From positions 1 to 59,871 of the forward strand of contig JALPXQ010000001.1 in assembly GCA_023271515.1 (NCBI GenBank): a stretch of 59,871 bases of DNA, read 5' to 3'. The translations under genes and the position numbers were made by a program. The DNA comes from Dehalococcoidia bacterium. Lineage in GTDB: Bacteria; Chloroflexota; Dehalococcoidia; SZUA-161; SpSt-899. Position 1 is the stretch's first letter, and each line of letters starts with the position of its first letter. This document shows, piece by piece, positions 10,212-58,919 of this stretch. Under the pieces are notes generated by a model. That model worked only from the letters and a program-made list of their open reading frames with translations. It ran no database searches and was not told the DNA's origin.

Positions 10212-12125
10212 CTAACTCCTATTTCCTCTAGCTCTTTCCAGATGCACCATCAAGAGGGCTATATCCGCTGGTGTAACCCCGTCGATGCGTGAAGCCTGCC
10301 CCAGTGTCTGCGGACGGAAGCGCTCAAGCTTCTGGCACGCTTCGCGGCGTAGCCCGTTAATGCCCCCATAGTCAAACCAATCGGGTATGTGCCGCTCCTC
10401 CAGCCTCAGCATCCTCTGAACAGCGGCCTCCTGCCTCTGGATGTAGCCTTCATATTTGGCCTCGATCACCACCTGTTCGGCGCAATCAGGACATAGCCGG
10501 CTGTCTGCAACGCCGAGCGTGGTCATGGTGCGATAATCCACATCCGGACGGCGCAGAAACTGCAGGGCACTGACGGTGCGTGTTCTAGATGGCAGACCAC
10601 ATTCTTCAAGGGACGCAGCCAATCTCTCGATTGAGAGGTGAGTCTTTGCCAGGCGCTTGAGTTCAGTGGCTACAACACGACGCTTGCTTTCTACCGCTTC
10701 ATATCGTCCCTGGCTGATGAGCCCCAATTTGTAGCCGGTGGGGGTGAGCCGGAGATCGGCGTTGTCCTGGCGTAAGAGCAGGCGATGTTCCGCCCGTGAA
10801 GTGAGCAAGCGGTAGGGCTCCGTCAGATCCTTCGTTACCAGGTCGTCGATCATCACCCCGATGTATGCCTGATCCCGTCGGAGGATCAGTGGGGGTTGTT
10901 CCTTTACCTTCAAAGCGGCGTTTATCCCGGCAAGCAGACCCTGGGCTGCAGCCTCTTCATAACCGGTGGTGCCATTGATCTGCCCGGCAAGAAAGAGTCC
11001 CGGAACCAGCTTGGTTTCCAGCGAGCTTACAATCTGGTTCGGCGGCACGAAGTCGTATTCGATGGCATAGCCGAAGCGAATGATCTCAGCATTTTCCAGC
11101 GCTGGAATAGTGCGAAGCATGGCCAGTTGCACATCCTCCGGGAGGCTGGTGTTGGCACCCTGAAGATAGACCTCGTTGGTTTCCCATCCCTCCGGTTCGA
11201 GGAAGAGTAGGTGCCACGGCTTATCGGCAAACTTTACTATCTTGTCCTCGATGGAGGGGCAATAGCGAGGCCCTGTTCCCTGGATCATACCGGTGAACAG
11301 CGGCGCACGGTGGAGGTTAGATCTGATTATCTGGTGCGTTTTTTCATTGGTGTAGACAAGGTAGCAGGGTATTTGCTGTCGCCAGGGGGTGTAATTTCCC
11401 TGGGGGTAGACAGGGTTGATGGGAGGGAAGTTGAGAGAATTAGAATTAGACTCAAAGCTGAAGTGAAGGGGTACCTCGCTCCCTGCTTGAATGATGGTTC
11501 TGGAGAAGTCGATGGTCCCGGCCTCCAGGCGAGGCGGGGTGCCGGTCTTGAGCCGGCTCATGGTAAATCCCAACCGCCGCAGGCTATCGGAAAGTCCATA
11601 AGCGGCAAACTCGCCGGCGCGCCCGGCAGCAAAGCTCTTCTCTCCGATAATGATTCGTCCCGCAAGAGAGGTTCCGGTGGTGAGAACGACCGTCTTTCCC
11701 TCGTAAGCCCAGCCGGTACTGGTTATCACCTTCAGTGCCTGATGATTTCGTTCCAATACTTCAACGAGTGCCTGCTTGACATAAAGATTGCCCTGCCTCT
11801 CAATGGTGTGTTTCATGGCCAGGCCGTAGAGCTTCTTATCCGCCTGGGCTCGGAGAGCCTGCACTGCCGGACCCTTGCCCGTGTTGAGCATTCGGATATG
11901 GATGAAGGTCTTGTCGATGTTGCGCCCCATCTCCCCGCCGAGGGCGTCGATCTCCCGAACCAGATGTCCCTTGGCGGGCCCCCCGATGGATGGATTGCAG
12001 GGCATGAGGGCTACGTTGTCGAGGTTCATGGTCAGCAGGAGGGTGCGGCAGCCCATTCGAGCGGCAGCCAGGGCGGCCTCACAGCCGGCATGCCCCGCGC
12101 CGACGACGATCACATCGTATATCAT
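10212..12125 (-). CDS. mnmG: tRNA uridine 5-carboxymethylaminomethyl modification enzyme MnmG
   Basis: [21 protein letters not shown] motif and GidA-family length. Start at ATG 12125. Confidence 0.95.
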
Positions 12126-12141
12126 GGCATATTCACCAGCT

Positions 12142-13050
12142 CTACGGCGGGCACTTGGCACAGATCGACATGAAGAGGGATGTGCTGAGATACCGGTCAC
12201 CACGGTCCGGGAGGAGCACCACCAGGGTGCCGGAATCCATCTCCCGGGCTATCTTTAGCGCTCCTGCCATTGCCGCCCCGCTCGACATGCCGACGAACAA
12301 CCCCTCTCTGGTTGCCAGGAGCCTGGTGGTTTCAAATGCCTCTTCATCGGTGATGGTCAGTATATCATCCAGAGCCTCTCGCTGGTAAATACGCGGGACA
12401 ATGGATTCCCGCATGTTCTTCAGACCCTGTATGGTGTGGCCCTCCATCGGTTCCAGACCAACGATCCGCACCGCCGGGTTTCGTTCTTTGAGGTATCTTG
12501 AGACGCCCATCAGGGTACCGGTCGTGCCCATCCCGGCAACGAACACCTCTACCTCGCCGTCTGTCTGGGCAAATATCTCCGGGCCGGTTGTTTCATAGTG
12601 GGCCAGAACATTGTTCTCATTCTCAAACTGATTTGGCATATAATACGTATCAGGGTGCTCTTCGAGAATTTGATGCGCCCGCAGGATAGCCCCGTCGGTT
12701 GCCTGATATCCCGGGGTCAGCTCGATCTCCGCCCCAAAAGCCTCAATTATATGTTGCCTCTCAACGCTGACACATTCGGGCATGATCAACTTCACCTTGT
12801 AACCCTTGGCTGCTCCTATCATGGCCAGCGCGATCCCGGTGTTCCCCGAGGTGGGTTCGAGGATGGTCTTGTCCGCCGGCAACTCGCCTGACATGATGGC
12901 TTTTTCTATCATGTAGCAAGCGATGCGATCCTTGACCGAGCCCCCCGGATTGCTTCCCTCAAGTTTAGCCATGAGCCTTACCCGGGGATTCCCGTTCAGG
13001 TTATTCAGCTCCACAAGCGGCGTATTCCCGATGGAATCGATAACACTCAT
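12142..13050 (-). CDS. cysK: cysteine synthase (O-acetylserine sulfhydrylase family)
   Basis: NTPLV, the PLP lysine motif SVKDR, and the GTTGT loop. Confidence 0.88.
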
Positions 13051-13625
13051 TACGCACCACCCACGATGATCTCATCCAGCGAGCGCTTGGGCACGTGGTG
13101 GATGCCCTGACTGTCGCGCCAGTATCCCGTGTCGCCGTCCGTCCCGAGCGGCTCGATGACCACTGTTTCCGCCGGTTTTCCGATCGCCAGCACCAGGAGT
13201 ATCTCGTAGCGATCAGGAATGTTGAGCGCGGCACGGAGCTTCGGACGATTGATCGAGGCCAACATGCATCCTCCCAGTCCCCTTTCCCTTGCGCCAAGCA
13301 TGATATTCTGGCTGGCGATGCCGTGGTCGCATCCAAAGTGAGTGGTCACCTCGGTATCGCCGAGCACGATGATATATGCCGATGGCCGTTCCCCTTCAGC
13401 CGGGCCGCCCCAGTCTTTGAGCGCCGCCGCCCAGGTGAGGGTGGAGAAAATCTGGGCGTTAGTCTCTGGCTCCCAGGAAAGGATGTATTTCAACGGCTGC
13501 AGATTTCTGGCCGATGCGGAATGCCTGGCCAGATCGAGCAGCTCGACCAGTACCTGGCGGGTGAGGGTCACACTCTGGTCGAACCGTCGGAAGCTGCGGG
13601 TGCTGCGGATCAAATCATCTATCAT
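13050..13625 (-). CDS. nitroreductase family protein
   Basis: 191 aa. RSTRSFRRF N-terminal motif typical of the NADH/FMN nitroreductase fold. Confidence 0.8.
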   Translation of the reverse strand: MIDDLIRSTRSFRRFDQSVTLTRQVLVELLDLARHSASARNLQPLKYILSWEPETNAQIFSTLTWAAALKDWGGPAEGERPSAYIIVLGDTEVTTHFGCDHGIASQNIMLGARERGLGGCMLASINRPKLRAALNIPDRYEILLVLAIGKPAETVVIEPLGTDGDTGYWRDSQGIHHVPKRSLDEIIVGGA

Positions 13626-13772
13626 TCTTAAGCTCCGTTAACAGATTTTTGAGAACGCCTTGGTAAACTTTTCACTCCCCTCAGAATAGATTATAACATA
13701 AAAGCTAAGTGTGACACCTGTCCCGGTGTAAGAGGCTGTGCCCCAAGCCGGAGAAGATCTCTGTTGGCCTCA

Positions 13773-14336
13773 TCATTGAGTGTATAGAGGGGCTTTCCCC
13801 ATGGTTGCGCTCCTCAAAACAAAAGCAATTGCCTTTGCAAGTTCTTCCGGCCTCTGTGATCCGATTAATATTGGCCTTCCATCTAGAAATTCTAAGGCCA
13901 CTCCACGATTACCGCTCACATTATATGCTTTACCTGATCTATAAGAACGAACACCCCATCCTCTGCAGTCTTTAATAGGACTATACGTTCGCACTTCGTA
14001 TCGCTTCAAGTTCTCCAAAGGAATCCTAAGAAAAGAAGAATGGAGAGGGAAGAGGCGAATATACAATCCATCACTTCGCACCTCTGTTATCAGTTTTGCG
14101 GTATAGAATAGCCAAATAAGACCTGCACCAAGAGCAATAAAAAAGCCTCCGACAATGAGCAGCATTGTATCTGATATTGGATCGTCTCCCCACGGTTGAC
14201 CAAAAACAAGTTGCCTAATCATTCCATAACCGAAAAGTCCCACAAGAAGCATACAACTGGAAAGCATGATTAACCAGAGCCACCATTGACGAAACTTTTG
14301 AATTTCCTGGAAAATCATATTTCCATCCTTATTCAT
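13773..14336 (-). CDS. membrane protein of unknown function
   Basis: 187 aa. Two N-terminal hydrophobic helices followed by a soluble domain. AT-richer than its neighbours. I recognise no family. Confidence 0.55.
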   Translation of the reverse strand: MNKDGNMIFQEIQKFRQWWLWLIMLSSCMLLVGLFGYGMIRQLVFGQPWGDDPISDTMLLIVGGFFIALGAGLIWLFYTAKLITEVRSDGLYIRLFPLHSSFLRIPLENLKRYEVRTYSPIKDCRGWGVRSYRSGKAYNVSGNRGVALEFLDGRPILIGSQRPEELAKAIAFVLRSATMGKAPLYTQ

Positions 14337-15141
14337 GTTACCCCTCCCCCTCTAAGCCATTTCACCTGACGTTTCGCGTGTTTGCGACGTTCGCCGATAG
14401 GCGAACGAACGGCTTCAGCAATCGCCTCTTTGGTCAGTGCCCGCGCCATTCCTCAATAACTGCCTCCCAAGCCATGTCGTTGGCTACCTGTTCAAGCACA
14501 TCTACAACTAATACTACTTTGTTAATTAGTCCTGTCTCTCTGAAGAATAAGGAGTTTCCAAAGCAGAGGAGATTGAGGAATGGGTGCTGTGACCAGCCCT
14601 CACCAGAATCGATCAGGTTCGGAACTTGACCGCCTGGTGCAAGTAACAAAGTAGTACTAATTCCGATATCTCCGAACATCCATTCCCGTCTGCACGTGCA
14701 ATTGCTAACACACTATGCCATGGCTAGTCAATAATCGTATCCCTTGAGGCAGATGGAACGGCGGCAATATGCTGCGCGGCTCTACCCCCTACCCATGCGG
14801 TATTTGATGTCATAGTTGATGATGAAACTTCCTCGTCGGTGAAGCCGTAGTGCTGCGCCTGCAGCACTCTTTATCGTCCTTGCTTTGCTTCCCACCTGAA
14901 AGTTCGCCGGAAAACCACCTCATCAGTCTCACTCCAGGCATTGCCCTGTTCAATACCCTCCAGTGCCTTATCTAAATGACCCATTTTACTTCTACGGATT
15001 CCATAGGAAGCATCCGGTGCTCCTCCTACTTAAACAGTGTATACAATGGTTGATGGTGGATGGTTGGTTGCCTTATCCTCATCGTTTTCTAACCCCTGGG
15101 CCTGCGGCCGGGGGCAGGCCTGACAACCCGAGCAGTTACAC

Positions 15142-15504
15142 TCAAGGTATATAGGTCACACACGAGTCTGGCGATTCCCAGACCTCGACATTGAAGATCG
15201 AAACCGCCTCCAGGCGGGGTTGCAGATCCCGGTAAATCGTGGTCGCGATGTTCTCCGACGAAGGGTTGATCTTGTCGAAGGGTGCTACATTATTCAAGCA
15301 GACGTGATCGAATCGCCCTAAGACCTCTCGCAGGTGCCCTTTCAACTCTGAGAAATCGAAGGCCATGCCAACATCATCGAGCTCCGAGCTCTCAACCGTC
15401 ACCACGGCCTCAAAGCGGTGGCCATGCAGTTCCTCACACTTGCCCTGATAGCCCCTCAGGTAGTGTGCGGCATCAAAGTGCTGCCGAACGGATACACGGT
15501 ACAT
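15142..15504 (-). CDS. queD: 6-carboxytetrahydropterin / 6-pyruvoyltetrahydropterin synthase family protein (PTPS-I/III-like)
   Basis: 120 aa. KCEELHGH carries both the C-x3-HGH and the E-x2-HGH signatures. Overlaps the folK 3' end. Confidence 0.85.
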   Translation of the reverse strand: MYRVSVRQHFDAAHYLRGYQGKCEELHGHRFEAVVTVESSELDDVGMAFDFSELKGHLREVLGRFDHVCLNNVAPFDKINPSSENIATTIYRDLQPRLEAVSIFNVEVWESPDSCVTYIP

Positions 15505-15982
15505 CTCTCCACCTCCTTACTTGTTGTGCCTCGGTCAGCCCGGAAAGTAAATCCCTCATGGTCTTCCCGATTGAGGGATGGGCAAGGTCGGGGGCGATCT
15601 CCACCAGTGGGATCAGGACAAAGGCCCGCTCTCCAATACGAGGGTGAGGGATAACCAGATACTGATCCTCAATCACCCGCTGGGCATAGAAGAGTATATC
15701 AATGTCGATGGGGCGAGGGGCGTTCGGGAAGCTGGCAACCCGGCCGAGCTGCCCCTCAATGTCCTTGACATAACGGAGCAGCTCAAAGGGGTCGAGCTGA
15801 GTCGTCCCAGAGCAGGCCATGTTGAGAAACCAGGGTTGATCCAGGTAACCCAGAGGCTCCGTTTCATAGATCGAGGAGACCTTCTTGATCATCATCCTCT
15901 CCGCCAGGGATTCAAGTCCCCTTGCCAGATTCCTTTCTCTATCCCCCAGGTTCGATCCGAGGCCAAGGTAAATGGTGTCCAT
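15473..15982 (-). CDS. folK: 2-amino-4-hydroxy-6-hydroxymethyldihydropteridine diphosphokinase
   Basis: IYLGLGSNLGDR start and HPR motif. 169 aa. Confidence 0.9.
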   Translation of the reverse strand: MDTIYLGLGSNLGDRERNLARGLESLAERMMIKKVSSIYETEPLGYLDQPWFLNMACSGTTQLDPFELLRYVKDIEGQLGRVASFPNAPRPIDIDILFYAQRVIEDQYLVIPHPRIGERAFVLIPLVEIAPDLAHPSIGKTMRDLLSGLTEAQQVRRWRDVPCIRSAAL

Positions 15983-29828: not shown

Positions 29829-29898
29829 ACAACGATGCCGAAGTTACACGCCATGCCTGTGAAAAATCTTAATATCCGCAAGGGGAATTTAGTAGAAT

Positions 29899-30204
29899 AT
29901 GGACGTAGTAAGGTCTAAAAACGGTGTCCCAATAAGATTGACAGAGGAGAGATGGATTCATATTACAGAGGAGCATTCAGAGATGGCGGGTTATTATTTT
30001 GAAGTGGTTCAAACGGTGGATGAGCCAGAGGCAATTTATGAGGGTAAGATGGGGGAGTGCATAGCAGCGAGAGAAATAGAGAAAGGTAAATATATTGTAG
30101 CAGTGTATAGAGAATTAAGTAAAGAAGATGGATTTGTAATTACCGCCTTCTTAACGAGGCGGAGGAAACAACTTGAAAGGAGGCGAAAGATATGGCAGCA
30201 GTAG
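29899..30204 (+). CDS. small toxin-like protein (DUF4258-like)
   Basis: 101 aa. IRLTEERWIHITEEH motif. Overlaps the next small gene. Family assignment is from memory. Confidence 0.5.
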   Translation: MDVVRSKNGVPIRLTEERWIHITEEHSEMAGYYFEVVQTVDEPEAIYEGKMGECIAAREIEKGKYIVAVYRELSKEDGFVITAFLTRRRKQLERRRKIWQQ

Positions 30205-30443
30205 AGGTAAAAAGTATATTGACCCTTGTGCCAGAGCTGTTGAAAGTCCCATATTCAAGGATTTGGACATCCTATGATAAAGAGGCTGATGTTTTATACA
30301 TCAACTTTAAGAAACCAAGTCATGCGGATGATTCTGAGCTTACAGATGATGATCTCATAATCAGATATGAGAAAGGGAAAATTGTGGGAATCACCATACT
30401 CAATGCAAGTAGAATGAGGACAGGATATGGGCACAGCGTATAA
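30192..30443 (+). CDS. DUF2283-like small protein (putative antitoxin partner)
   Basis: 83 aa. [12 protein letters not shown]...[12 protein letters not shown] pattern typical of DUF2283, from memory. Confidence 0.55.
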
Positions 30444-30519
30444 CAGCCGACATATGGCTACGCTATGCTCCGCCCAAATTCCCTCCCTTCGCTCGGGAAC
30501 TTCGTATGTCCGCAAAACG
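30436..30519 (+). other. attC-like site of the solo cassette
   Basis: R'' GCGTATAAC (30436-30444), L'' GACATATG (30449-30456), L' CGTATGTC (30503-30510), junction G at 30519. Shares the blocks ACGCT, CCCAAAT, ACTTCG and CAAAACG with the two sites near 57.1 and 58.8 kb. Confidence 0.55.
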
Positions 30520-32520
30520 ATAGACGAACTCTGTATCAACACCATACGTTTTCTGGCCATCGATGCTGTCCAGAGGGCAAATTCAGGCCATCCGGGAGCG
30601 CCCATGGGCATGGCGCCGATGGCTTATGTGTTATGGGACAGGTTTCTGAAGCATAATCCCGCCGACCCGAAATGGCCCAACCGGGACCGGTTCATTCTTT
30701 CGGCAGGGCACGCCTCAGCGATGCTCTATGCCCTCCTGTACCTTACGGGATATGAGCTGTCCCTTGAGGAGATCAAGCATTTCCGACAATGGGAAAGCAA
30801 GACCCCGGGGCATCCTGAGTACGGATTAACCCCTGGTGTGGAGGCGACAACGGGACCGCTCGGTCAGGGATTTGCCAATGGCGTGGGTATGGCCATTGCC
30901 GAAAAGATGATGGCACAGCACTACAATCGGCCAGGATATGAGATCATAGACCATTATACCTATGCTATTGTCTCCGATGGGGACCTTATGGAGGGCGTTG
31001 CCTCAGAGGCAGCTTCACTGGCGGGGACTCTTCGCCTGGGTAAGCTCATTTATCTCTACGATGACAACGATATTTCAATCGAAGGGCATACCGATATTAC
31101 CTTCCGGGAGGACGTGGGTAAGCGTTTCGAGGCGTATGGCTGGCACGTCGTAGGACCCATCGACGGCACGGATCTGGATGCAATCGATGATGCCATTCGG
31201 CAAGCACAGGCAGAGAGGGATCGCCCCAGCCTGATCATTTGCAAGACGATTATCGGTTATGGCAGCCCAAGCAAGGCAAACACCGCCAGTGCTCATGGTG
31301 AGCCACTGGGCGAGGCAGAAGTCCTTCTAACCAGGGAGAATTTGGCGTGGCCCTTCAGGGAGCCATTCACCGTGCCGCCGGACGTCCTGGTTCATTTCCG
31401 GCAGGCGCGGGAACGGGGAAAACGGTGGCAACAGGATTGGGAAAGCAAACTGGAGGCTTATCGCCGGGAATTTCCTGAGGCGGCAAGACGCCTGGGGGAA
31501 GACCTGGCGGGGAATCTACCTGACGGTTGGGAGCAGGATCTCGACGATTTGTTCTCCTCTCAGGAAAAGCCGATCTCCACACGCGCAGCATCGGGGCTGA
31601 TCATCAATGCCATTGGATCGAAGGTTCATTCCCTTACCGGCGGTTCGGCAGACCTTGCACCTTCCACCAAGACCATCATGAGAGACCGCGGGCACTATGG
31701 TCCGGAGAACTATGCCGGTCATAACATACACTTCGGCGTCCGCGAGCACGCCATGGGGGCAATCGCCAACGGCATGGCCCTTCACGGCGGCGTGATTCCC
31801 TATACAGCAACCTTCCTCGTTTTTTATGACTATATGCGCCCGCCGGTGCGCCTGGCAGCGATGATGGGGCTGCAAGTGATATATATTTTCACTCACGACT
31901 CTATTGGTGTGGGAGAGGATGGGCCAACACACCAGCCCATCGAGCAACTGATTGGCTTAAGATCGGTGCCAAATCTGGTAACACTGCGTCCTGCCGACGC
32001 CACTGAAACAGCCGAGGCATGGAAGATGGCTCTAAGGCGTCGTCATGGTCCCACGGCTTTAGTTCTCAGCCGTCAGGATCTGCCTTTCTTGGATCGCTCA
32101 ATATTGGCTTCAGCAAGCGGTGTGCAACGTGGCGGATACGTGCTCTGGGAAGCATCCACATCGCCGGAAGTGATCCTCATCGGCACAGGCTCGGAGGTCC
32201 ACATTGCCTTGGAAGCCGGGCGGATATTGCAGGAAAAGGGTGTCCCAGCAAGGGTTGTTTCCCTGCCTTCGTGGGAACTGTTTGATGCTCAACCGGCGGA
32301 GTATCGCAACCAGATTTTGCCGCCTGAAATAAGAGCGCGTATTTCAATCGAGGCCGGTACGCCTCGGGGATGGGAACGATATATCGGTCTGGATGGACTC
32401 GCCATGGGGGTGTCTTGCTTTGGTTCCTCAGCACCGGCAGGGACAATCTACGAGAGGCTGGGTCTGACTGCGAAAGCGGTGGTGGACAAAGCTCTCGCAC
32501 TTCTAGGGGGACGTGATTGA
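30454..32520 (+). CDS. tkt: transketolase
   Basis: SGHPGAPMG and SDGDLMEG motifs, full length. The present start is uncertain: in-frame ATGs at 30427 and 30454 both lie inside the inserted cassette. Confidence 0.9.
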
Positions 32521-50401: not shown

Positions 50402-51508
50402 ATGGCAGTCCGCGCAAACTTGATCCAGATCGAGCCGGGGGAAGCAGAGAGGCTCAAGCTCCTCATCCCCTATGATGCCACATGGGTAGCAAAGGTCAAG
50501 GCCATCCCTGGTCGCCGCTGGCACCCGAAGGAAAAGTGCTGGAGTGTTCCCCGCTCAGAGAACATGGTCGAAAGGCTCGTCTCACTCTTTGGCGAGGAGC
50601 AGGTGAAGGTTGAGCCGTCTCTGCGTCCCTTGAAGGACTCACTCATCTGCCAAGGAGAAGATCCGCAGCTAGTGCAACTGCTTGAAGCGATGGATCAAGA
50701 ATTGAGGCTGCATGGCTACGCGGCGAAGACACGCAAAGCTTACCTGGGGCATGTGGATCGTTTTGCTCGCTTCTATGGAAACGACCCGCAAGGTTTAAGC
50801 AAGGTAACGATGCGTGCATACCTGCTCCATCTGCTTCAGAAGTAGCAAGCATCCCACACGTATGTCAACCAATGTATCAGCGCACTGAAGTTCCTGTACG
50901 AGAAGGCCCTGAAAGAACCCTCCCCAATGGTCAACCTTCCCCGGCCAAAGAGGGAGCGCAAGTTGCCGGATATCCTGAGCCGGCAAGAGGTTCTTCGGCT
51001 CTTGGAGGCAGTACAGAACCCCAAACACCGTGCCATTATGCTGTTGACTTATTCGTCAGGACTCCGTCTGGGCGAAGTGGTACGATTGAAGATAGAGGAC
51101 ATTGACAGCGCGCGACGGCTGATTCACCTCCGACAAGCTAAAGGGCGAAAGGATCGCTACACCGTACTGTCCCAGGTGGCTTTGGATGCCTTGCGAGCCT
51201 ATTTCAAGCAGTATCACCCTGATCAGTGGCTCTTCCCCGGGGCGCAACCGGGGCGGCACTTACACGAACGCACCGTGCAGAAAGTCTTTGAGCAGGCCCG
51301 AGAAATGGCGGGAATTCGTAAGAATGTGTCTGTGCATACACTGCGCCATTCGTTTGCGACCCATTTGCTGGAGTCAGGCACAGACTTGAGATACATTCAA
51401 GAGCTGCTCGGACACAAGAGTTCCAAGACTACTGAGATTTACACGCACGTTAGTGAGCGAGACATTGGACGGATCCAGAGCCCGCTGGACACTCTTGGAA
51501 TTCAATAA
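50402..51508 (+). pseudogene. tyrosine site-specific recombinase with an in-frame TAG
   Basis: The two ORFs (…50845 and 50927…) share one frame, separated only by TAG at 50843-50845. Catalytic region HTLRHSFATHLLE...LLGHKSSKTTEIYTHV. C-terminal SPLDTL. Confidence 0.85.
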
Positions 51509-51622
51509 AATGGGAATATTGACGAGGGACGCTGACGGCTAAAGGAAGGGATTCGCGAAATGGTTCGTCTAACATGCCAAAACCGACGTATCTGCGAACC
51601 TTGGGGTGCGTGAATGCATGAG
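51509..51622 (+). other. attI-like region between the recombinase and the first cassette
   Basis: GC-rich spacer ending in G51622 of GTTGTCCGA. Does not resemble the attC-like cores. Confidence 0.4.
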
Positions 51623-51672
51623 TTGTCCGAAATTGCGGGCGACGGGCTAATGGAAATCAGAGGTGATAAATT

Positions 51673-52023
51673 ATGGATGATAAGGAGACATTTGGGGAAA
51701 TCAAAAAATTGATACAAGAATTTAACATGATACGGAATTGGGACAAATATCACCACCCTAAAGATTTGATTTTGGCGATAATGGAAGAGCTTGGAGAATT
51801 ATCTCGTATTTTTAAACGGGTTAACACTAAGAATGAGGTAAAATATCTTAAAAAAGAGAAGGTTGGAGAGGAAATTGCGGATATTTTTATTTACTTATTT
51901 ATATTATGCTATAAAGCAGATATAGATATTTCTAATGCAATAATGGAAAAGCTTCAAAAAAATAATGAAAAATATCCTGTCGATAAACGATTCAGAAAAG
52001 GAGGGTACAAAAATGGAAAATAA
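51673..52023 (+). CDS. MazG-like all-alpha nucleoside triphosphate pyrophosphohydrolase
   Basis: 116 aa. Metal-binding motifs EELGEL and EEIADI, and C-terminal NNEKYP. Confidence 0.75.
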   Translation: MDDKETFGEIKKLIQEFNMIRNWDKYHHPKDLILAIMEELGELSRIFKRVNTKNEVKYLKKEKVGEEIADIFIYLFILCYKADIDISNAIMEKLQKNNEKYPVDKRFRKGGYKNGK

Positions 52024-53311
52024 AGAGAATTTGAAAAGACGTGTTCTTTTATATATATCTAGAGGTGCAAACACTTTGGATAAATTACTCCAAGTTTGCA
52101 ACGGTATTTATCCAAACGAATTAAAATTTTTGTTAAATGAACTAAAAGATAAAAACTTAGTGAAGGAAGAAAATGACTTTTTTGTTGTTGATAAAAATTG
52201 TATCGAATATTTAAAAATAGTAGATGTAAATCGCTTAGAAATGAATAAAATAAATGAAAAATTTTTAAAAATGTATCATGAACTACCTATCCCTCACCCA
52301 CTAGATTATGAGTGGAGATGGAACTTAGATAATTTAAAAAAACTATTTACAGCTATAATAAACAAACATCCTTTTAACAACTTAAAAATTGGTTTTCTTG
52401 GAGCTCCAATTGCAGCTATTTATTTTTCTATTGTTAAAAATTTTGAAAACTTGAATTTCCAATTGACATTAATTGATAGGAATGAAGAAATAATCAGATA
52501 TATTAGAAATAATAGCATTCTAAATAACCAAATTAAAACAATATGCCACGACTTACAATATGAATTCAAAAATGGATTAGGAAAAAATGATATAATAATT
52601 ATGGATCCTCCTTGGTACGTAGCCTTTCACAAAATTTTTATCTCTAGAGCATCATCAATTTTGCAGCCCGAAACAGGTTTTGTTTATTCATCTTTATTTC
52701 CAACAAATACAAGACCAAATGCTATTTATGAAAGAATGGAAATATTAGAAATTTTTATTAAATCGGGGTTACATCTTGTATCTTTAACTCCTTCATTCTT
52801 TAAATATGAAACTCCACATTTTGAGTCAAAATCCCTCGAAGCAAGCGGTATTAGATTGGAATCTCATTGGCGGTATGGAGACCTTATAATTCTTCAATCA
52901 ACTAAGCTTTTAAGACCTATAATTTTTGGAGATTTTATTGTCGAAAATTTTGTTTGGAAAACTGTTAGATTTGATAAAAAACTAATTAAAATTAAGATCT
53001 CACCTTTTGAAGAACAATACATACGTCCCCGGATAATTCAAATATTAGATAAATCTAGCATTTTAGAGAGCGTTAGTAGAAGACATCCATACAGGCCTTA
53101 TGTAGATATGTGGACATCAGATAATGAAATATTTCATCTTACAGGAAGAAATATCATATACTTTGTTTTGAATTTGTACTCTTCAGGAGAAAATATTCAA
53201 CAGATTGTAGAAAAGATAAGTAAGAAATATGGAGTGCAAAGGAAAAAAATTGATGAAGATATAAAAGAAATTGTTAATTTTGTAGAAACTAATATAGTAA
53301 GGAGGGAATAA
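52013..53311 (+). CDS. wHTH / class-I SAM-dependent transferase-like (DPPW) protein with a PqqD-like C-terminal domain
   Basis: IIIMDPPWY motif IV, Rossmann-like FLGAPIAA...LIDRN, and C-terminal HLTGRNIIYFVLNLYSSGENIQQIVEKISKKYGV resembling PqqD/RRE. Start at ATG 52013 after AGGAGGG. Confidence 0.6.
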   Translation: MENKENLKRRVLLYISRGANTLDKLLQVCNGIYPNELKFLLNELKDKNLVKEENDFFVVDKNCIEYLKIVDVNRLEMNKINEKFLKMYHELPIPHPLDYEWRWNLDNLKKLFTAIINKHPFNNLKIGFLGAPIAAIYFSIVKNFENLNFQLTLIDRNEEIIRYIRNNSILNNQIKTICHDLQYEFKNGLGKNDIIIMDPPWYVAFHKIFISRASSILQPETGFVYSSLFPTNTRPNAIYERMEILEIFIKSGLHLVSLTPSFFKYETPHFESKSLEASGIRLESHWRYGDLIILQSTKLLRPIIFGDFIVENFVWKTVRFDKKLIKIKISPFEEQYIRPRIIQILDKSSILESVSRRHPYRPYVDMWTSDNEIFHLTGRNIIYFVLNLYSSGENIQQIVEKISKKYGVQRKKIDEDIKEIVNFVETNIVRRE

Positions 53312-53312
53312 A

Positions 53313-54548
53313 ATGAATATATTTAACTTGGCAGACTTAGGATATAAGATTATCGTAATAGATGAAAAAGCTATAAATTTATTTCTAAACAAAGTTTCAT
53401 TAGAAGAAATCAAAGATTTTATTCGTCACAAAGGGAAAGTTTATGTTTTGGGTAAAGATGCTGGAGAAATAAAAAAATATGTTGAAAAGTCTGGAGGAGA
53501 AATTATTGATATTTCTAAAAAAGAAGTATTGGCAGAGGTTACAACTATTGTAAGGACTAAAAACCATAAATTTTTAGATTGGGCTAAAACATTTGGGATA
53601 GATTCAAAATTGGTTAAATCTCAGGTATTATATGTTAAATATACCGATGCATCTGTTATAACAGATTTACCAGCCTTCTTTAATATGCCTTATGTTAAAT
53701 ATGTAAGAAAAAAAGACTGCTACTTAAGATTAATAGCTCATGGTATGGAAAACTGCCCTCACAATTGTGTATATTGCTATGCTAATTATGCTTATGATGT
53801 CCCAACAACAGTTTTAATCAATTTTAAAAATAAAATAAAAGAGGATATTCAAAAACCAAATATAAAGGAACATATTCAACGAGGTTATCCAATTAACATA
53901 GGTTCAATTACAGACCCTTTTAGTAAGGTAGCTGTTTATTTTGGTTTGGTTGAAGACTTTTTATCCTCTGTTGGTGACATTAGAACTTTAATAGTAACTA
54001 AGTCTACTCTTTTTACAAATGATTATTTTGTCGATTTATTAAAAAAATTTAGGAATGTAAAATTAACCTTCACATTTACAGGACTTCACCAATACGAAGC
54101 AGGTGTCCCACGCAGAGGCTATAATTTTCCATCAGAAGAAATATCAAAAGCTATATCCTCTGGAATTGATATTAATGTTTTTTATAGGCCAATAATAGAA
54201 GGTATTAATGATGATTTAAGCGATATGAGAGTTATATTTTCACAAATGAAAGAAGCAGGATTAACAAATGTATGTTTTGGTTTTTTAAGAAATAACATGC
54301 GAATGGAGGAGTCTCTATCTAAGAGATTTTCCTCTTTGTTCTTAGATTTGACTAAAGGATTGACTGACAAATACATGGATGATTTTTATCCTCTTTTAAA
54401 CTATCGCATTAGGAAATCATTAGAGATTCATAATATTCTTTACCATCTAGATATGAATATCTCTGCCTGTCAACCCTATATTGGAAAATTAAGAGATTTA
54501 GTAGAAACAACTTATTGCTCTTGTAGAAAAGAGAGGTGGGAAAAATGA
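53313..54548 (+). CDS. radical SAM enzyme, spore-photoproduct-lyase / COG1533-like
   Basis: CPHNCVYCYA cluster motif (CX3CX2C followed by YA, as in DNA-photolyase-type radical SAM proteins). An N-terminal domain of about 130 aa has unknown function. Confidence 0.65.
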   Translation: MNIFNLADLGYKIIVIDEKAINLFLNKVSLEEIKDFIRHKGKVYVLGKDAGEIKKYVEKSGGEIIDISKKEVLAEVTTIVRTKNHKFLDWAKTFGIDSKLVKSQVLYVKYTDASVITDLPAFFNMPYVKYVRKKDCYLRLIAHGMENCPHNCVYCYANYAYDVPTTVLINFKNKIKEDIQKPNIKEHIQRGYPINIGSITDPFSKVAVYFGLVEDFLSSVGDIRTLIVTKSTLFTNDYFVDLLKKFRNVKLTFTFTGLHQYEAGVPRRGYNFPSEEISKAISSGIDINVFYRPIIEGINDDLSDMRVIFSQMKEAGLTNVCFGFLRNNMRMEESLSKRFSSLFLDLTKGLTDKYMDDFYPLLNYRIRKSLEIHNILYHLDMNISACQPYIGKLRDLVETTYCSCRKERWEK

Positions 54549-55549
54549 AGATACATTTAGCAATTTTATATAAAGATTATTTAGATTTGATTTTGGAAGG
54601 TAAAAAAACGATTGAGGCTCGTTTTTCAAAGGTTAAATGTCCACCTTATGGTAGAGTTTCTATTGGAGATAAAATTCTATTAAAGGAAACAGGAGGTCCT
54701 ATTAGGGGAGAGGCTACAGTCAGTGTTGTAAAGTATTTTGATAACCTTGCTCCATCTAGGGTTGTCCATATTGTTAATAAATACAAAGAACAATTACAAA
54801 TTAAAGACAATTTTCTTAACCAAAAGTTGGATAGTAATTATTTAACTCTTATATTTCTCAAAGACGTCGTCGAAGTTTCACCTTATTTTATTAATAAGAG
54901 AGATAGAAGAGGCTGGATTGTATATTACAATCACGCTCCTCAATCAATACAATTGGACTTATTTGGAAATAAAGTCAGTGATAAGGAAGTGAAAATAAAC
55001 CCATATTACAGTGAATGCGAAAATGGATTGCATTCTTTCTTTAAATCTCCTTTAAAAAATAGTGAAGGATACCCACGTTGTAGAAATTGTGGTAAAGACA
55101 TAATTCACTGGAAGAAACTACATATAAGAGATTTAAAAAATATAGATTTTGTTATTTCAGAGTTAAGGAAAGAATGGTGGAGAAACTACTGGTGGGAGGT
55201 TGAAATCGATGAAAAAGCTATATCCCACGCACTTAGGAAGAACTCTAATGAACTATACGTTCTTGTAAGAAAAAGAATCGAAAAGTCTGTTGGGATTGTC
55301 TATGAGTTTAGAGGCAGAAAACAACCCTATCGTGATGGTTATCAGATACCCTACAAAGGCAATATTATTTATTATGCTCAACATGCTACAGCTACATGTT
55401 GCAGAAAATGTATTGAGTGTTGGCATGGCATACCTCAAGGCAGAAACCTCAACAATGAAGAAATAGAATATCTTACTATGTTAGTAATGAAATATATAAG
55501 AAGGAAATTAAGGGATTACAAGAGGGGGGTGATAAGAAATGGTAAGTGA
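54545..55549 (+). CDS. ASCH-domain / zinc-ribbon / DUF4186-like fusion protein
   Basis: N-terminal ILEGKKTIEARF...GDKILLKE (ASCH/PUA-like). CRNCG zinc-ribbon. C-terminal YYAQHATATCCRKCIECWHGIPQGR (DUF4186 signature, from memory). ATGA overlap with the upstream stop. Confidence 0.6.
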   Translation: MKIHLAILYKDYLDLILEGKKTIEARFSKVKCPPYGRVSIGDKILLKETGGPIRGEATVSVVKYFDNLAPSRVVHIVNKYKEQLQIKDNFLNQKLDSNYLTLIFLKDVVEVSPYFINKRDRRGWIVYYNHAPQSIQLDLFGNKVSDKEVKINPYYSECENGLHSFFKSPLKNSEGYPRCRNCGKDIIHWKKLHIRDLKNIDFVISELRKEWWRNYWWEVEIDEKAISHALRKNSNELYVLVRKRIEKSVGIVYEFRGRKQPYRDGYQIPYKGNIIYYAQHATATCCRKCIECWHGIPQGRNLNNEEIEYLTMLVMKYIRRKLRDYKRGVIRNGK

Positions 55550-56510
55550 TGATGAATTTGTAAGAGTAAGAGATGAAATTCTTAAACTCATCGTTGAAGG
55601 AAATAAAAAGTTACTATTCTGGGGTTTCACTCCATTTTGTATTAATCTTATTTCAAATCTTGTGAATATGGGTTTGGATAATTGTATAGTTGGAATAATT
55701 GACCATAAAAACAATAAACAAGGATGTAAAGTATACAATTATGTAGTATTACCCCCTTCAGAAATAAAAAAATTAGATATTGACACTTTAGTTATATGTT
55801 ATGATGAAGAAAAGGAAGATGTCTTAGAATTATTTTACAATTTATATTCAAAAAATAGAAAAGTTGAAATTATACTTTATGGAAATAAGAATTACGAATT
55901 TTCGGATAGTCTTTTTCAGGAAATAATTGATTCACTTCCTGTTAAGTCCAAGGCTGGTGGATATCCTTTTATGCTCATTCACATATACCAATCATTAATT
56001 CATGTTATCAAAAATAACATACCTGGTGATGTCGTAGAGATTGGTACATTCCAAGGTGGTACCACCGTATTCATGGCTAAAGTAATAAAAGCGTTAGGAA
56101 GCGATAAAAAAATTTTTTCTTTCGATACATTTTCAGGATATCCGGAGAGCAAAAACCCTTTAGACTTATTTAAAGATAAAAAGTGTGAGTTTAGTGATTA
56201 TGATTTCGTCAAAAACTATTGCAAACCGTATAAAATAGAACTTATTAGAGGAAATATAGTAGAAACCATTAATACGTTGAAAGGGGAAAAAATCTCTTTT
56301 TCTTTTTTTGATACCGACAATTATACACCTACTAAAATAGCTTTAAAATACATTTTCGATCTTACACCTAAGGGAGGAATCTTTGCTTTTGATCATTATT
56401 ACTCAAAAGATTGGATAAAAACTATAGGAGAAAGGATAGCCATTAAGAAGTTCTTTAAAGATAAAAATGTTTTTAACTTACAAGGAACTGGAATATTTAT
56501 CAAATTATGA
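55539..56510 (+). CDS. TylF/MycF-like SAM-dependent methyltransferase with an N-terminal Rossmann-like domain
   Basis: GDVVEIGTFQGGTT SAM motif, FDTFSGYPE, FFDTDNY. Confidence 0.65.
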   Translation: MVSDDEFVRVRDEILKLIVEGNKKLLFWGFTPFCINLISNLVNMGLDNCIVGIIDHKNNKQGCKVYNYVVLPPSEIKKLDIDTLVICYDEEKEDVLELFYNLYSKNRKVEIILYGNKNYEFSDSLFQEIIDSLPVKSKAGGYPFMLIHIYQSLIHVIKNNIPGDVVEIGTFQGGTTVFMAKVIKALGSDKKIFSFDTFSGYPESKNPLDLFKDKKCEFSDYDFVKNYCKPYKIELIRGNIVETINTLKGEKISFSFFDTDNYTPTKIALKYIFDLTPKGGIFAFDHYYSKDWIKTIGERIAIKKFFKDKNVFNLQGTGIFIKL

Positions 56511-56519
56511 GGTGTAACT

Positions 56520-57071
56520 ATGGAAAGGATTGTAATTGGTGTATCTGGTCCTATTGGGGCCGGAAAAACATGCCTTTGTAATATACTAGTGGCAAAATAT
56601 GGATTTAAATATTTAAGTTTTGGAAAATTGATTTCTGACATATTAAAAGAAGAGGGTGTTGAGATTACAAGAGAAAATTTACAAAATATGGGTGAAAAAA
56701 TAATAAAAGAGAAGGGTTGCAAGGGTGTTGTCGACTTGCTTTTTAAAAAGTATCAAGTGGGTGAGGTATCAAATTATACTATTGATGGTATAAGACATAT
56801 GAAAGTTTATTTGTATCTAAAAGAAATTTTTAAAAGCTCTTTTAAACTTGTATATGTCGATGCCCCACTAACTGTTAGATTTGAAAGGGTCAAAATGAGG
56901 GTTAAAGATATTAATATAAACTCACTGACTGATTTAAAAGAACTTGAATGTAAAGAGATCGAGAGAAATATTCCGTATTTAAAGAAATATGCAGATTTTA
57001 TAATAATGAATGATAAGGATGATACCCATTTAGAAAATAAACTAAAAAACCTATTAAATCAAATAATTTAA
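56520..57071 (+). CDS. P-loop nucleotide/nucleoside kinase-like protein
   Basis: GVSGPIGAGKT Walker A. Size and layout resemble dephospho-CoA kinase or dNMP kinase. Confidence 0.65.
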   Translation: MERIVIGVSGPIGAGKTCLCNILVAKYGFKYLSFGKLISDILKEEGVEITRENLQNMGEKIIKEKGCKGVVDLLFKKYQVGEVSNYTIDGIRHMKVYLYLKEIFKSSFKLVYVDAPLTVRFERVKMRVKDININSLTDLKELECKEIERNIPYLKKYADFIIMNDKDDTHLENKLKNLLNQII

Positions 57072-57076
57072 AATGT

Positions 57077-57209
57077 GCCCGTCGCCCGCAACTCTCCGCT
57101 TCGCTTCGGTGCTATCGCACTCGGACAACAGCAGGTATGCGGTTCGCTTACGCTCACCCAAATGCTCGGCTTCACCTCGCACTTCGCATACCCGCCGCCC
57201 GTTAGTTGC
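57077..57209 (+). other. attC-like site 1
   Basis: Box' GCCCGTCGCCCGCAA, 29-nt bulge, R'' TCGGACAAC, L'' GGTATGCG (57134-57141), 43-nt core, L' CGCATACC (57185-57192), R' GTTAGTTGC (57201-57209). Confidence 0.6.
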
Positions 57210-57279
57210 AATTGGCGTCGGGTCGAAATTCAGGAAAGGAATAAAAATACATAATTAATAAATTAGGAGAGGCGATAAA

Positions 57280-57510
57280 ATGAGAAATATGAAAGAGCAG
57301 ATAGAAAGATTTGTGGATGATACAATAAAGAAAAATGATATCGTACTCTTGGATATTTTATGGACCTTCTACTGGTGTATTACCACCACACCTAAATCAG
57401 GGTATTATGAAAATAATAAATTAAATGTAAGTAACATTTTCAAAAAATGGTTCTATAGAGTCTCTATTAGAAATTTACAAAAAAGTTTAATTTACGTCAG
57501 ACAGAAATAA
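57280..57510 (+). CDS. hypothetical protein
   Basis: 76-aa ORF after GGAGAGG. I recognise no family. Confidence 0.4.
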   Translation: MRNMKEQIERFVDDTIKKNDIVLLDILWTFYWCITTTPKSGYYENNKLNVSNIFKKWFYRVSIRNLQKSLIYVRQK

Positions 57511-57542
57511 AGAACAAAATAATAAAAGTATTAATAGATTGG

Positions 57543-57887
57543 ATGAACACCGCACCGGATTTTCTACCTTACGAAACTTATGATGAAGATAGAGAATTAT
57601 TAAGAAAACTCTTACTCAAGAAAAGTTCAGATCTTTTAATTAAAAACATTAGAAATAAAATGGATACTCTATCCGACTTGGATAAAAAAATTCTGTCATT
57701 TATATTATACTACATTCCACTTAAAATTCAGGAGTCTATAAAGGAAGCGGAAGAAGAAAGGCAAAAAGGAGGCTTTGACTGGGGCAAATATGGTTATCTC
57801 CCCGATTTTCATATAAAAACAGATAAAGAAACTGGTGAAATTGTTTATTTTGAAATCGATCCAAAAGAATGGACATACATTTTTTAA
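57543..57887 (+). CDS. hypothetical protein (possibly the N-terminal part of the downstream nuclease gene)
   Basis: 114-aa ORF ending in a T6 run (57880-57885). A one-base change there fuses it to the next ORF. Confidence 0.4.
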   Translation: MNTAPDFLPYETYDEDRELLRKLLLKKSSDLLIKNIRNKMDTLSDLDKKILSFILYYIPLKIQESIKEAEEERQKGGFDWGKYGYLPDFHIKTDKETGEIVYFEIDPKEWTYIF

Positions 57888-58692
57888 TTTATTATTTGAT
57901 GAAGAGTTAAAAGAACAAAGGTTTAAAATTAAATTACATAGAAAGCGTACAGGATTTATATTTCTTCCACAAGAAGAATATAAGGAATATAGTTTCTGGC
58001 AATTTGGAGACGAATTGGTAAAAATGGGTATTGGGTATTGGAGCGTTTGGGTTTCAGAATCAAAAAATGTACATATAGAGTTCGTTATTCCGAACTTTAT
58101 TTATGAGGCCATACAAGATTATAAAACCAAATTACCAATAATCGAAAACTTTGAAGAAAAAATCAATGAAATTAAAAGGGAAAAAGAGACAAAAAGATTA
58201 GAAAAAGAATGGAATCTTGAAGACTTTGAAGAAACTGAGGCAGTTAGCGAAGTATTAGAATCTGAGATTGAAGCTTCCATAATATCAAATCCTGAAATTT
58301 TAGAAGAAGGATTAGAACTTGTTGGTAATCAGTATCCAACTTCTGTTGGTTACATCGATATACTTTGTAAAGATAAAAATGGGAATTTTGTTGTAATAGA
58401 ATTAAAGAGAGGTACAGGTTCATATAAAGTAGTTGGTCAAATTCAGAAGTACATGGCATGGGTCAGCGAAAATCTTGCTAAAGATAAACAAGTTCGGGGA
58501 ATTATTGTAGTGAAAGAGTATGACCAAGAGTTAGAGTACGCTGTTAAAGGATCAAAATTTCCAATTGAGATAAAAATATTCGGACAAGAACCACCAACTG
58601 GAGAAAATATAAAATATTGTACAAGATGTGGAAAACCAAATCCAAAATCGGCTAAATATTGTATCAAATGCGGACAAGAATTTTGGATGTGA
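57835..58692 (+). CDS. NucS/DUF91-like PD-(D/E)XK nuclease with a C-terminal double zinc-ribbon
   Basis: GYIDILCKDKNGNFVVIELKRG...QIQKY nuclease core. KYCTRCGKPNPKSAKYCIKCG. The true start is uncertain. Confidence 0.6.
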   Translation: MKLFILKSIQKNGHTFFNLLFDEELKEQRFKIKLHRKRTGFIFLPQEEYKEYSFWQFGDELVKMGIGYWSVWVSESKNVHIEFVIPNFIYEAIQDYKTKLPIIENFEEKINEIKREKETKRLEKEWNLEDFEETEAVSEVLESEIEASIISNPEILEEGLELVGNQYPTSVGYIDILCKDKNGNFVVIELKRGTGSYKVVGQIQKYMAWVSENLAKDKQVRGIIVVKEYDQELEYAVKGSKFPIEIKIFGQEPPTGENIKYCTRCGKPNPKSAKYCIKCGQEFWM

Positions 58693-58713
58693 TATAAATG
58701 GGATTTATTTTTA

Positions 58714-58847
58714 CGACCCGACGCCAACTTCTCGCCTCTTCGAGGCTCGACCCTTACGGGGCAACTAACAAGCGAATATACGGTTCGCTTCGCTCACCCA
58801 AATGCTCGGCTACGCCTCGCACTTCGCATATCCCCAAAACGTTATAT
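58714..58847 (+). other. attC-like site 2
   Basis: Box' CGACCCGACGCCAA, 33-nt bulge, R'' GCAACTAAC, L'' GAATATACG (58774-58782), core, L' CGCATATCC (58825-58833), R' GTTATAT (58841-58847). Confidence 0.6.
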
Positions 58848-58919
58848 GACATTCCGCCCCTTCGCCGTATCAGAAAATATAAAAATATATGGATTATTGT
58901 AAATTATGGAGGCTAAAAG

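Follow-up and report, generated by a model that had tools for sequence, protein, structure and literature searches.

The R box of canonical attC sites already extends 6 bp past the cut. It measures 7 bp, its variable 4 bp need not pair in arrays, the central spacer has 5-6 nt in each arm, and two or three extrahelical bases are located near L'' (PMC5027507; PMC5371416). The integrases (IntIs) of archaeal integrons have the IntI-specific additional domain, and pairing outside R''-R' is absent from the description of these elements (Ghaly et al. 2022, PMC9668308). The integrases of 'inverted integrase' integrons, found in Treponema and others, were likewise identified as IntI, in their case by an IntI-specific profile (PMC2426708, PMC4889954).

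Here we describe an integron in a 59,871-nt stretch of DNA from a Dehalococcoidia bacterium (contig JALPXQ010000001.1), hereafter the window. Its attC sites resemble those of class 1 integrons and the Vibrio VCRs, which IntI recombines as folded bottom strands, in the order R''-L''-loop-L'-R', the conserved AAC/GTT, the G|TT crossover and the variable terminal loop. [quoted passage not shown] Unlike canonical sites, those studied here have a cassette-specific R arm of 15-25 bp in place of the 7-bp R box (PMC5027507, PMC5371416), a central spacer of 1-2 x 5 nt, no bulges in the L arms and, in some R arms, a module with several hairpins. Integrons as a kind of element are known. In the open-access literature searched we found neither a description of pairing outward of the R box nor a natural integron integrase without the additional domain; also undescribed there are a cognate R arm of this length and the wobble conserved in it, the inserted junction module, and integrases without the IntI domain in combination with bulge-free attC sites.

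A chromosomal integron in a Dehalococcoidia genome

The locus is a chromosomal integron and the repeats in it are its attC recombination sites, as follows from the tyrosine recombinase gene, the attI junction at G|TT and the AT-rich cassettes with GC-rich attC. From 51.6 kb onward, the cassette region has 27-35% G+C, and host DNA ~55%; the accessory genes beyond this point are co-oriented and AT-rich, with GC-rich sites of ~100 nt between them. UvrC, RelA/SpoT, MnmG, Ffh, a bacterial PheT and ClpB are encoded in the window as markers of a bacterial host, and the sister MAGs are labelled Dehalococcoidia. An archaeal host, considered on account of a V-type ATPase operon and DUF61, is ruled out by the same markers. 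A search of the whole window with Rfam at gathering thresholds returned two tRNAs only.

All features of the window given below are on the plus strand. The integrase gene (50402-51508) is interrupted by an in-frame TAG (50843-50845). It is co-oriented with the cassettes, the first of which follows 114 nt after its end. The attI region occupies 51509-51622, with the crossover between G51622 and T51623. This assignment is based on the sister strain L026, which equals the window up to ...GCATGAG and continues from TT onward with another first cassette, the two parting company exactly at GAG|TT. The related integron L056 contains duplicated cassettes whose identity begins at G|TT, takes in their own attC and stops at the following G|TT. 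The L056 duplicated cassette and the window/L026 junction together rule out, for the family, a crossover at R'' instead of R'. An attI site immediately downstream of intI and cassettes in the same direction are also typical of archaeal integrons. Indirect signs of cassette movement are the unlike first cassettes in sister strains, the L056 duplicate and a lone cassette at a secondary site (see below).

A conflicting junction was observed in L049, directly after GTCTAAC. Both L049 and L050 diverge from the window after this motif (51574), 48 nt ahead of the G|TT junction, which points to an integrase-proximal site with two alternative junctions. When window 51569-51622 is compared with L049 11159-11236, a symmetric 78-nt hairpin site replaces the 48 nt of the window. 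The second integrase-proximal junction looks like a G|TT junction read on the opposite strand. Relative to the window, L026 also has an 11-nt tandem duplication (CGAGGGACGCT, L026 11883-11893) between the integrase stop codon and attI.

Because recombination cuts R' behind its first G (G|TT), the sequence on the right-hand side moves together with the downstream cassette, and the 5' end of a cassette therefore holds the 3' half of its own hairpin base. The cut lies inside a helix, and in the array the cassette genes separate both halves of the long base.

The attC sites and their distribution

Additional copies were collected using an exact 19-21 nt pattern from the attC loop as a probe. It matched MAGs of both domains, among them Thermoplasmata, Archaeoglobus, Methanoperedens, Syntrophaceae, Sumerlaeota, Omnitrophota and Desulfurellaceae, as well as 22 metagenome contigs; 11 coding matches of the genome scan were discarded as unrelated (a Udaeobacter transporter gene; Methylophilus). 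A covariance model trained on 13 attC copies and then run on the matched loci recovered 85 attC sites from bacterial and archaeal MAGs and metagenomes, including a third site in the window (30430-30532). Adjacent attC sites delimited 41 non-redundant complete cassettes, to which we added 11 cassettes from L056 and one from L052. The occurrence of the window attC type in the Thermoplasmata, Archaeoglobus and Methanoperedens MAGs and the cross-domain sharing of cassette sites are further points in common with archaeal integrons, and the presence of the same attC type in both domains suggests cassette exchange across very distant hosts.

The repeats, which the original prediction had called attC-like, are true attC sites with R''/L''/L'/R' repeats and conserved AAC...GTT, and the pairs of their L helix covary among sites. 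In an alignment of 72 unique sites fitted to the model, the two spacers measure 1-2 and 5 nt, each L arm has 11 nt, with no bulges in 71 sites, and neither extrahelical bases near L'' nor spacers of 5-6 nt per arm were found. The internal loop, earlier drawn as 4 versus 7-8 nt, is thus better described as 1-2 versus 5 nt, adjoining an L helix which in the window copies is 11 bp long with mismatches. The compensatory change noticed between the L''/L' pairs of the two window sites is real and amounts to one G-C to A-T change.

Cassette 1 (51623-57201), with a length of 5.6 kb, is unusually large and holds six ORFs at 27-31% GC; no GC-rich island was found inside it. Its ORFs encode MazG-like, BpsA_C and DUF4186 proteins, a TylF-type methyltransferase, an AAA kinase and one unknown protein. 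The cassette starts with the R' remainder (51623-51630) and an unpaired AA (51631-51632), followed by the outer box' TTGCGGGCGACGGGC (51633-51647). At its opposite end are the outer box GCCCGTCGCCCGCAA (57077-57091), an inserted module CTCTCCGCTTCGCTTCGGTGCTATCGCAC (57092-57120) with two mini-hairpins and GCGAAGC on the bottom strand, and the attC core (57121-57201; covariance-model match of 96.2 bits). The core consists of R'' (57121-57129), L'' (57131-57141), the loop, L' (57185-57195), the 5-nt spacer and the G of R' at 57201.

Cassette 2 (57202-58841; 1.6 kb, three ORFs) is built in the same way, with outer box' TTGGCGTCGGGTCG (57212-57225), outer box CGACCCGACGCCAA (58714-58727), a module (58728-58760) containing the mini-hairpins GCCTC-TTC-GAGGC and CCC-TTAC-GGG, and an attC core (58761-58841; 98.1 bits) running from R'' (58761-58769) to the G of R' at 58841. 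Cassette 3 starts at 58842 and runs off the contig (59871); its outer box' is predicted to be TTCCGCCCCTTCGCCG (58852-58867) and has no partner in the window. The outer box' of several unrelated cassettes (window 58852-58860, L026 about 12003, L027 and L008) opens with TTCCGCCCC, which means that the outer box is not entirely free in sequence. The lone cassette (29844-30519) is a low-GC unit with two small ORFs, flanked by a 382-aa ORF on one side and a transketolase gene on the other. The R' of its attC (30430-30532) is degenerate, the site ending in G|AT where G|TT would be regular, and insertion at a secondary site is expected to leave such an end.

Across the family, the base of the site comprises an R arm of 9-10 bp, a T.G pair on the bottom strand at position 11 and 6-15 further cassette-specific bp. 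In a subset of cassettes (both complete ones of the window array and those in L027, L032, L042, L008/L029, L033, L040 and L031), the R'' side has an insert, a module of 27-65 nt placed precisely where the wobble would be, and on the R' side the AA alone is unpaired. The module always starts with ACTCT, directly after the outer box, and contains one to three GC-rich mini-hairpins; those of L027 and L032 are near-identical to that of window cassette 1. Thus, the bulge with its own mini-hairpin in the original prediction does contain hairpins, but it is a conserved inserted module present in several metagenomes rather than an oddity of particular cassettes. The module splits the R arm into separate tiers and turns the base into a multi-branch junction, in the order outer helix, module, R helix, internal loop of 1-2 x 5 nt and 11-bp L helix. 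In L056 (11066-20948), additional small hairpins are located near both cassette ends, for example GCCATCCATGGC past the stop codon and GCGGCATCGTGCCGC ahead of the start codon; attC loops in this integron are ~150 nt long with internal repeats (GATTCGAAGAAG...), and the whole sites are ~200 nt.

Cognate pairing of cassette ends

The boxes that had been picked out as perfect inverted pairs are indeed located where predicted. Those at 51633-51647 and 57077-57091 are exact reverse complements over 15 nt, and those at 57212-57225 and 58714-58727 over 14 nt, or 17 nt allowing one mismatch. The 9-nt R boxes are cognate as well: GTTGTCCGA (51622-30) pairs with TCGGACAAC (57121-29) in cassette 1, and GTTAGTTGC (57201-09) with GCAACTAAC (58761-69) in cassette 2. 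In both window cassettes, the starting 9 nt mismatch the R'' of the neighbouring site and match their own R'' exactly. Given this cognate pairing of its ends, the 5.6-kb six-gene unit can be regarded as a single cassette. As a control, starts and ends of other cassettes were combined into 1582 non-cognate pairings. Their longest exact complementary run was 5.35 nt on average, 8 nt at the 99th percentile and 11 nt at most, and none had 13-15 nt.

The covariation expected in additional copies is present in the form of cassette-specific pairing of the outer tier. Window cassette 1, L027 and L032 have the same R box and a near-identical module but unrelated outer boxes (TTGCGGGCGACGGGC, TTCCGCCCC and TTCAGAAGTCCGC, respectively), each of which perfectly matches its own partner kilobases away. 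L042 has another perfect 15-nt outer pair. In eight module-type cassettes, the outer exact runs are 7-15 nt and begin 2 nt past the 9-nt R box.

For cassettes without an insert, the sequence preceding R'' was reverse-complemented and compared with the start of the same cassette. In 28 such cassettes, cognate identity was 0.71-0.86 at positions 5-10 and 0.50-0.71 at positions 13-18, compared with 0.35-0.49 and 0.23-0.29 in non-cognate combinations; the semi-conserved position 12 gave 0.86 versus 0.75, and from position 19 identity was at background. The set was enlarged to 35 cassettes without a module and with a cognate R box, L056 and L052 included. Here the median uninterrupted helix is 15 bp for cognate and 4 bp for non-cognate ends, and positions 12-18 have 5.0/7 matches in register but 1.5-2.1/7 when slid by 1-3 nt. 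In 31 of the 35, a start-side A faces an R''-side C at position 11, which is a mismatch on the top strand and a T.G wobble on the bottom one. L056 cassettes pair over 15-21 bp, with one exception that has a 1-nt indel; the first cassette of L052 pairs over 10 bp, the wobble and then 5 bp. The lone window cassette has cognate ends too, which on the bottom strand pair over 15 bp, three of them wobbles. About six of 41 adjacent attC pairs show no cognate pairing; these may be missed sites or rearrangements. The outer tier is therefore general in this attC family, with cassette-specific pairing out to about position 18. The three-tier stem proposed earlier holds for the window cassettes; as a general form it gives way to a continuous R arm of 15-21 bp, of which it represents a subfamily.

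For comparison with canonical sites we used two class 1 cassettes of one Salmonella plasmid, in which dfrA1 pairs over 7 bp and aadA1 over 12 bp, including two bottom-strand wobbles. Pairing beyond the cut, as predicted, is present in the window, but it does not set these sites apart in kind: 6 bp beyond the cut are already canonical and aadA1 pairs 12 bp, so that the difference is one of degree, together with the inserted module. An arm of 15-25 bp with a branched insert is nonetheless well outside the class 1 range (7 and 12 bp in the two cassettes).

In our preferred reading, to which we assign a probability of roughly 0.6, the window feature is the split, in-array form of an attC site with a long cassette-specific base that clamps the excised circle. 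The alternative that survives best, although we consider it unlikely, is that the long arm is a historical relic of cassette or attC formation with no present function. Such a relic could have arisen by capture of an attC unit inside a palindrome of a small circular DNA or by repair of hairpin stems against themselves. It would fit the observation that in the circle the conserved unit (ACTCT-module-R''-core-R'-AA) is contiguous and so is the variable part from box' through the genes to box. Erosion would also be in line with outer boxes that are perfect in some cassettes and degraded in others, and with the uncompensated changes in the outer box between the homologous cassettes L008 and L029. 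However, simple insertion into a palindrome yields no cognate ends after excision from an array, and a relic would hardly explain why the helix ends consistently at position 18-21 in 35 cassettes of different lineages and attC subtypes, or why the position-11 wobble is invariant. In addition, stem mismatches lean towards G.T wobbles on the bottom strand (22, versus 9 on the top strand), a modest excess.

Folding and strand preference

Cassette ends were joined to their own starts, as in the excised circle, and folded as single-stranded DNA. The structure proposed for the window cassettes was obtained in these rejoined junctions on both strands, most strongly on the bottom one, with its outer helix, mini-hairpins, R helix and L helix. 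Minimum free energies were -47.4 (cassette 1) and -39.4 (cassette 2) kcal/mol for the bottom strand and -40.9 and -37.2 kcal/mol for the top strand, compared with only -32.5 and -20.8 kcal/mol for the in-array (linear) window sites. Relative to 200 dinucleotide shuffles, the bottom-strand z-scores were -5.6 and -6.0, and the centroid structures retained the outer helix, the R helix and the mini-hairpins. For 41 junctions, the mean minimum free energy was -32.7 kcal/mol in circular and -25.6 kcal/mol in in-array form (p = 1.9e-7), and the circular form was more stable on the bottom than on the top strand (p = 1.5e-6). The C-GAA-G motif occurs 70 times on the bottom and five times on the top strand, and GCGAAGC 19 times and not at all, respectively. 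According to Hirao and colleagues, d(GCGAAGC) reportedly forms an unusually stable DNA mini-hairpin. Taken together, bottom-strand folding, the GAA motifs and the position-11 wobble suggest that it is the bottom DNA strand that folds, as it does in canonical integrons, and speak against a function in the sense transcript.

The latter point bears on the idea of an RNA-level element which protects transcript 3' ends, terminates transcription or isolates the mRNA of each cassette. The boxes and the module do lie in untranslated spacers, after stop codons and before ribosome-binding sites; sense-strand hairpins are possible, some with CTTCGG-type loops, and the top-strand folds of the window junctions are themselves stable. 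Yet it is the antisense strand that folds better and carries the GAA-triloop motifs, and the conserved position 11 would be A.C on the sense strand and pairs solely on the antisense one. Furthermore, 0.5-5.6 kb separate the partners, and no T-runs follow the hairpins. We therefore regard an RNA-level role as improbable.

It is still harder to see the boxes as terminal inverted repeats of small transposons. An inverted repeat of 13-25 nt does flank each unit, but the repeats vary between units and it is the sequence between units that is conserved; moreover, the boundaries given by strain comparison and duplicated cassettes are at G|TT, within the conserved site, which itself scores as attC, and there are neither target-site duplications nor transposase genes. 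Chance complementarity, for which nothing speaks but the small copy number in the window, can be rejected, because none of the 1582 non-cognate pairings reaches 13 nt and one register is common to the two window cassettes, the lone one and tens of others elsewhere.

The adjacent integrase

The window integrase contains a SAM-like domain (PF13495) and PF00589. The additional domain that is specific to IntI, with the I2 helix region around patch III, is absent, since residues 262-284 (23 aa) align opposite residues 175-239 (65 aa) of VchIntIA (2a3v). The alignment with VchIntIA begins only at query residue 97, leaving 88 extra N-terminal residues, and this 88-aa N-terminal domain is absent from VchIntIA. 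The integron-integrase model TIGR02249 scores 230.8, below its cut-off of 265 and split in two stretches, and NCBIfam XerA_Arch scores 227 bits, just over its cut-off of 220. Besides passing the XerA_Arch cut-off, the enzyme resembles Xer in the length of the stretch between the catalytic Lys hairpin and HxLRH, and the folded attC is dif-like, resembling a 6-nt central region flanked by two arms of 11 bp. Unlike Xer/dif systems, the locus has arrays of hairpin sites and an attI rather than a single double-stranded dif, and the integrase C-terminus (SPLD motif) and SAM-like domain resemble IntI. In five lineages, the recombinase is followed by hairpin-site arrays between accessory genes, a layout unlike the single, double-stranded and cassette-free dif site of chromosome dimer resolution. 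The system differs from archaeal integrons in that the integrases adjoining the window attC type lack the IntI domain and the window host is a bacterium, and the missing domain also sets the window integrase apart from 'inverted integrase' integrons (PMC2426708, PMC4889954).

The predicted structure of the N-terminal domain is a compact beta/alpha fold (pLDDT 77). A PDB fold search with this model returned nothing significant (best E-value 0.037); weak resemblances were to eIF1/SUI1, the SMARCAL1 HARP domain and the XPB damage-recognition domain. Binding of the extra tier by this domain would thus be pure speculation.

An intact integrase (P0001, 99% identical) is present in sister strains; strains L049 and L050 have the gene intact. 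The TAG at 50843-50845 is CAG in L026, which has a CAG-to-TAG change of its own ~180 nt upstream (L026 about 11025). Recoding of the in-frame stop codon is ruled out, since six of 25 long ORFs of the host end in TAG and the codon in question is CAG in sister strains. TAG being a normal stop in this genome, the window and L026 changes are independent nonsense mutations. Accordingly, the window integrase is a pseudogene and the array is probably no longer shuffled by its own enzyme.

Among 7991 integrase homologues with E < 1e-30, four from other lineages with 57-65% identity had downstream DNA available (L051, L052, L055 and L056; L056 57% and L051 65% identical to the window enzyme), and all four are followed by same-strand attC arrays. 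Integrase fragments beside the same attC type in L027, L039, L004 and L031 also lack the IntI insertion. Truncated C-terminal fragments from this integrase family are located beside or inside arrays of the window attC type in L040 (3488-3604 and 5714-5845), L027 (5769-6203) and L039 (4337-4882). The L051 array (11483-15568) contains an IS (HTH_Tnp_1, rve) and a group II intron reverse transcriptase (RVT_1, GIIM); group II introns are known to associate with attC sites.

Proposed role of the long arm

If the feature is a clamped attC, the full helix would form only in the excised circular single-stranded cassette. There the long base would clamp the fold and offer the recombinase a fully paired binding arm; stabilization of the folded site in the excised circle is the likely role of this clamp. 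Hybrid sites in the array would pair at few conserved positions only. The contrast between a clamped circle and mismatched in-array hybrids suggests that the circle would be a much better substrate for attI x attC insertion than the array would be for excision, and re-insertion of circles would be favoured and excision disfavoured. The module may nucleate bottom-strand folding or serve as a hinge. The partner enzyme would be the adjacent Xer-like integrase without the IntI extra domain.

More tentatively, these elements could belong to a widespread and so far unrecognized integron lineage in Chloroflexota, Firmicutes-type MAGs and others, with the site type also found in archaeal MAGs, a possibility that we consider somewhat less likely than its opposite. 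It would be characterized by an Xer-like integrase without the IntI domain and with an N-terminal domain of ~88 aa, and by attC sites that have no extrahelical bases, a one-sided 5-nt spacer, a long cassette-specific R arm, a T.G wobble and sometimes a branched junction. Were such a lineage to exist, current tools would score its arrays as integrase-less attC clusters (CALINs), and recombination would prefer the excised circle over the array on account of the long cognate arm.

For work on arrays, cognate pairing is a practical tool, because it certifies the two ends of one cassette and reveals rearranged arrays. If functional, the long arm would be a fourth determinant of attC besides extrahelical bases, central spacer and terminal loop, and would provide a physical reason for circles inserting more readily than resident cassettes excise. 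That bulge-free attC sites occur together with integrases from which the bulge-binding domain is missing suggests that there is a second way to read folded DNA sites, and an extended-stem attC system of this kind may explain some of the attC clusters that have no recognizable integron integrase.
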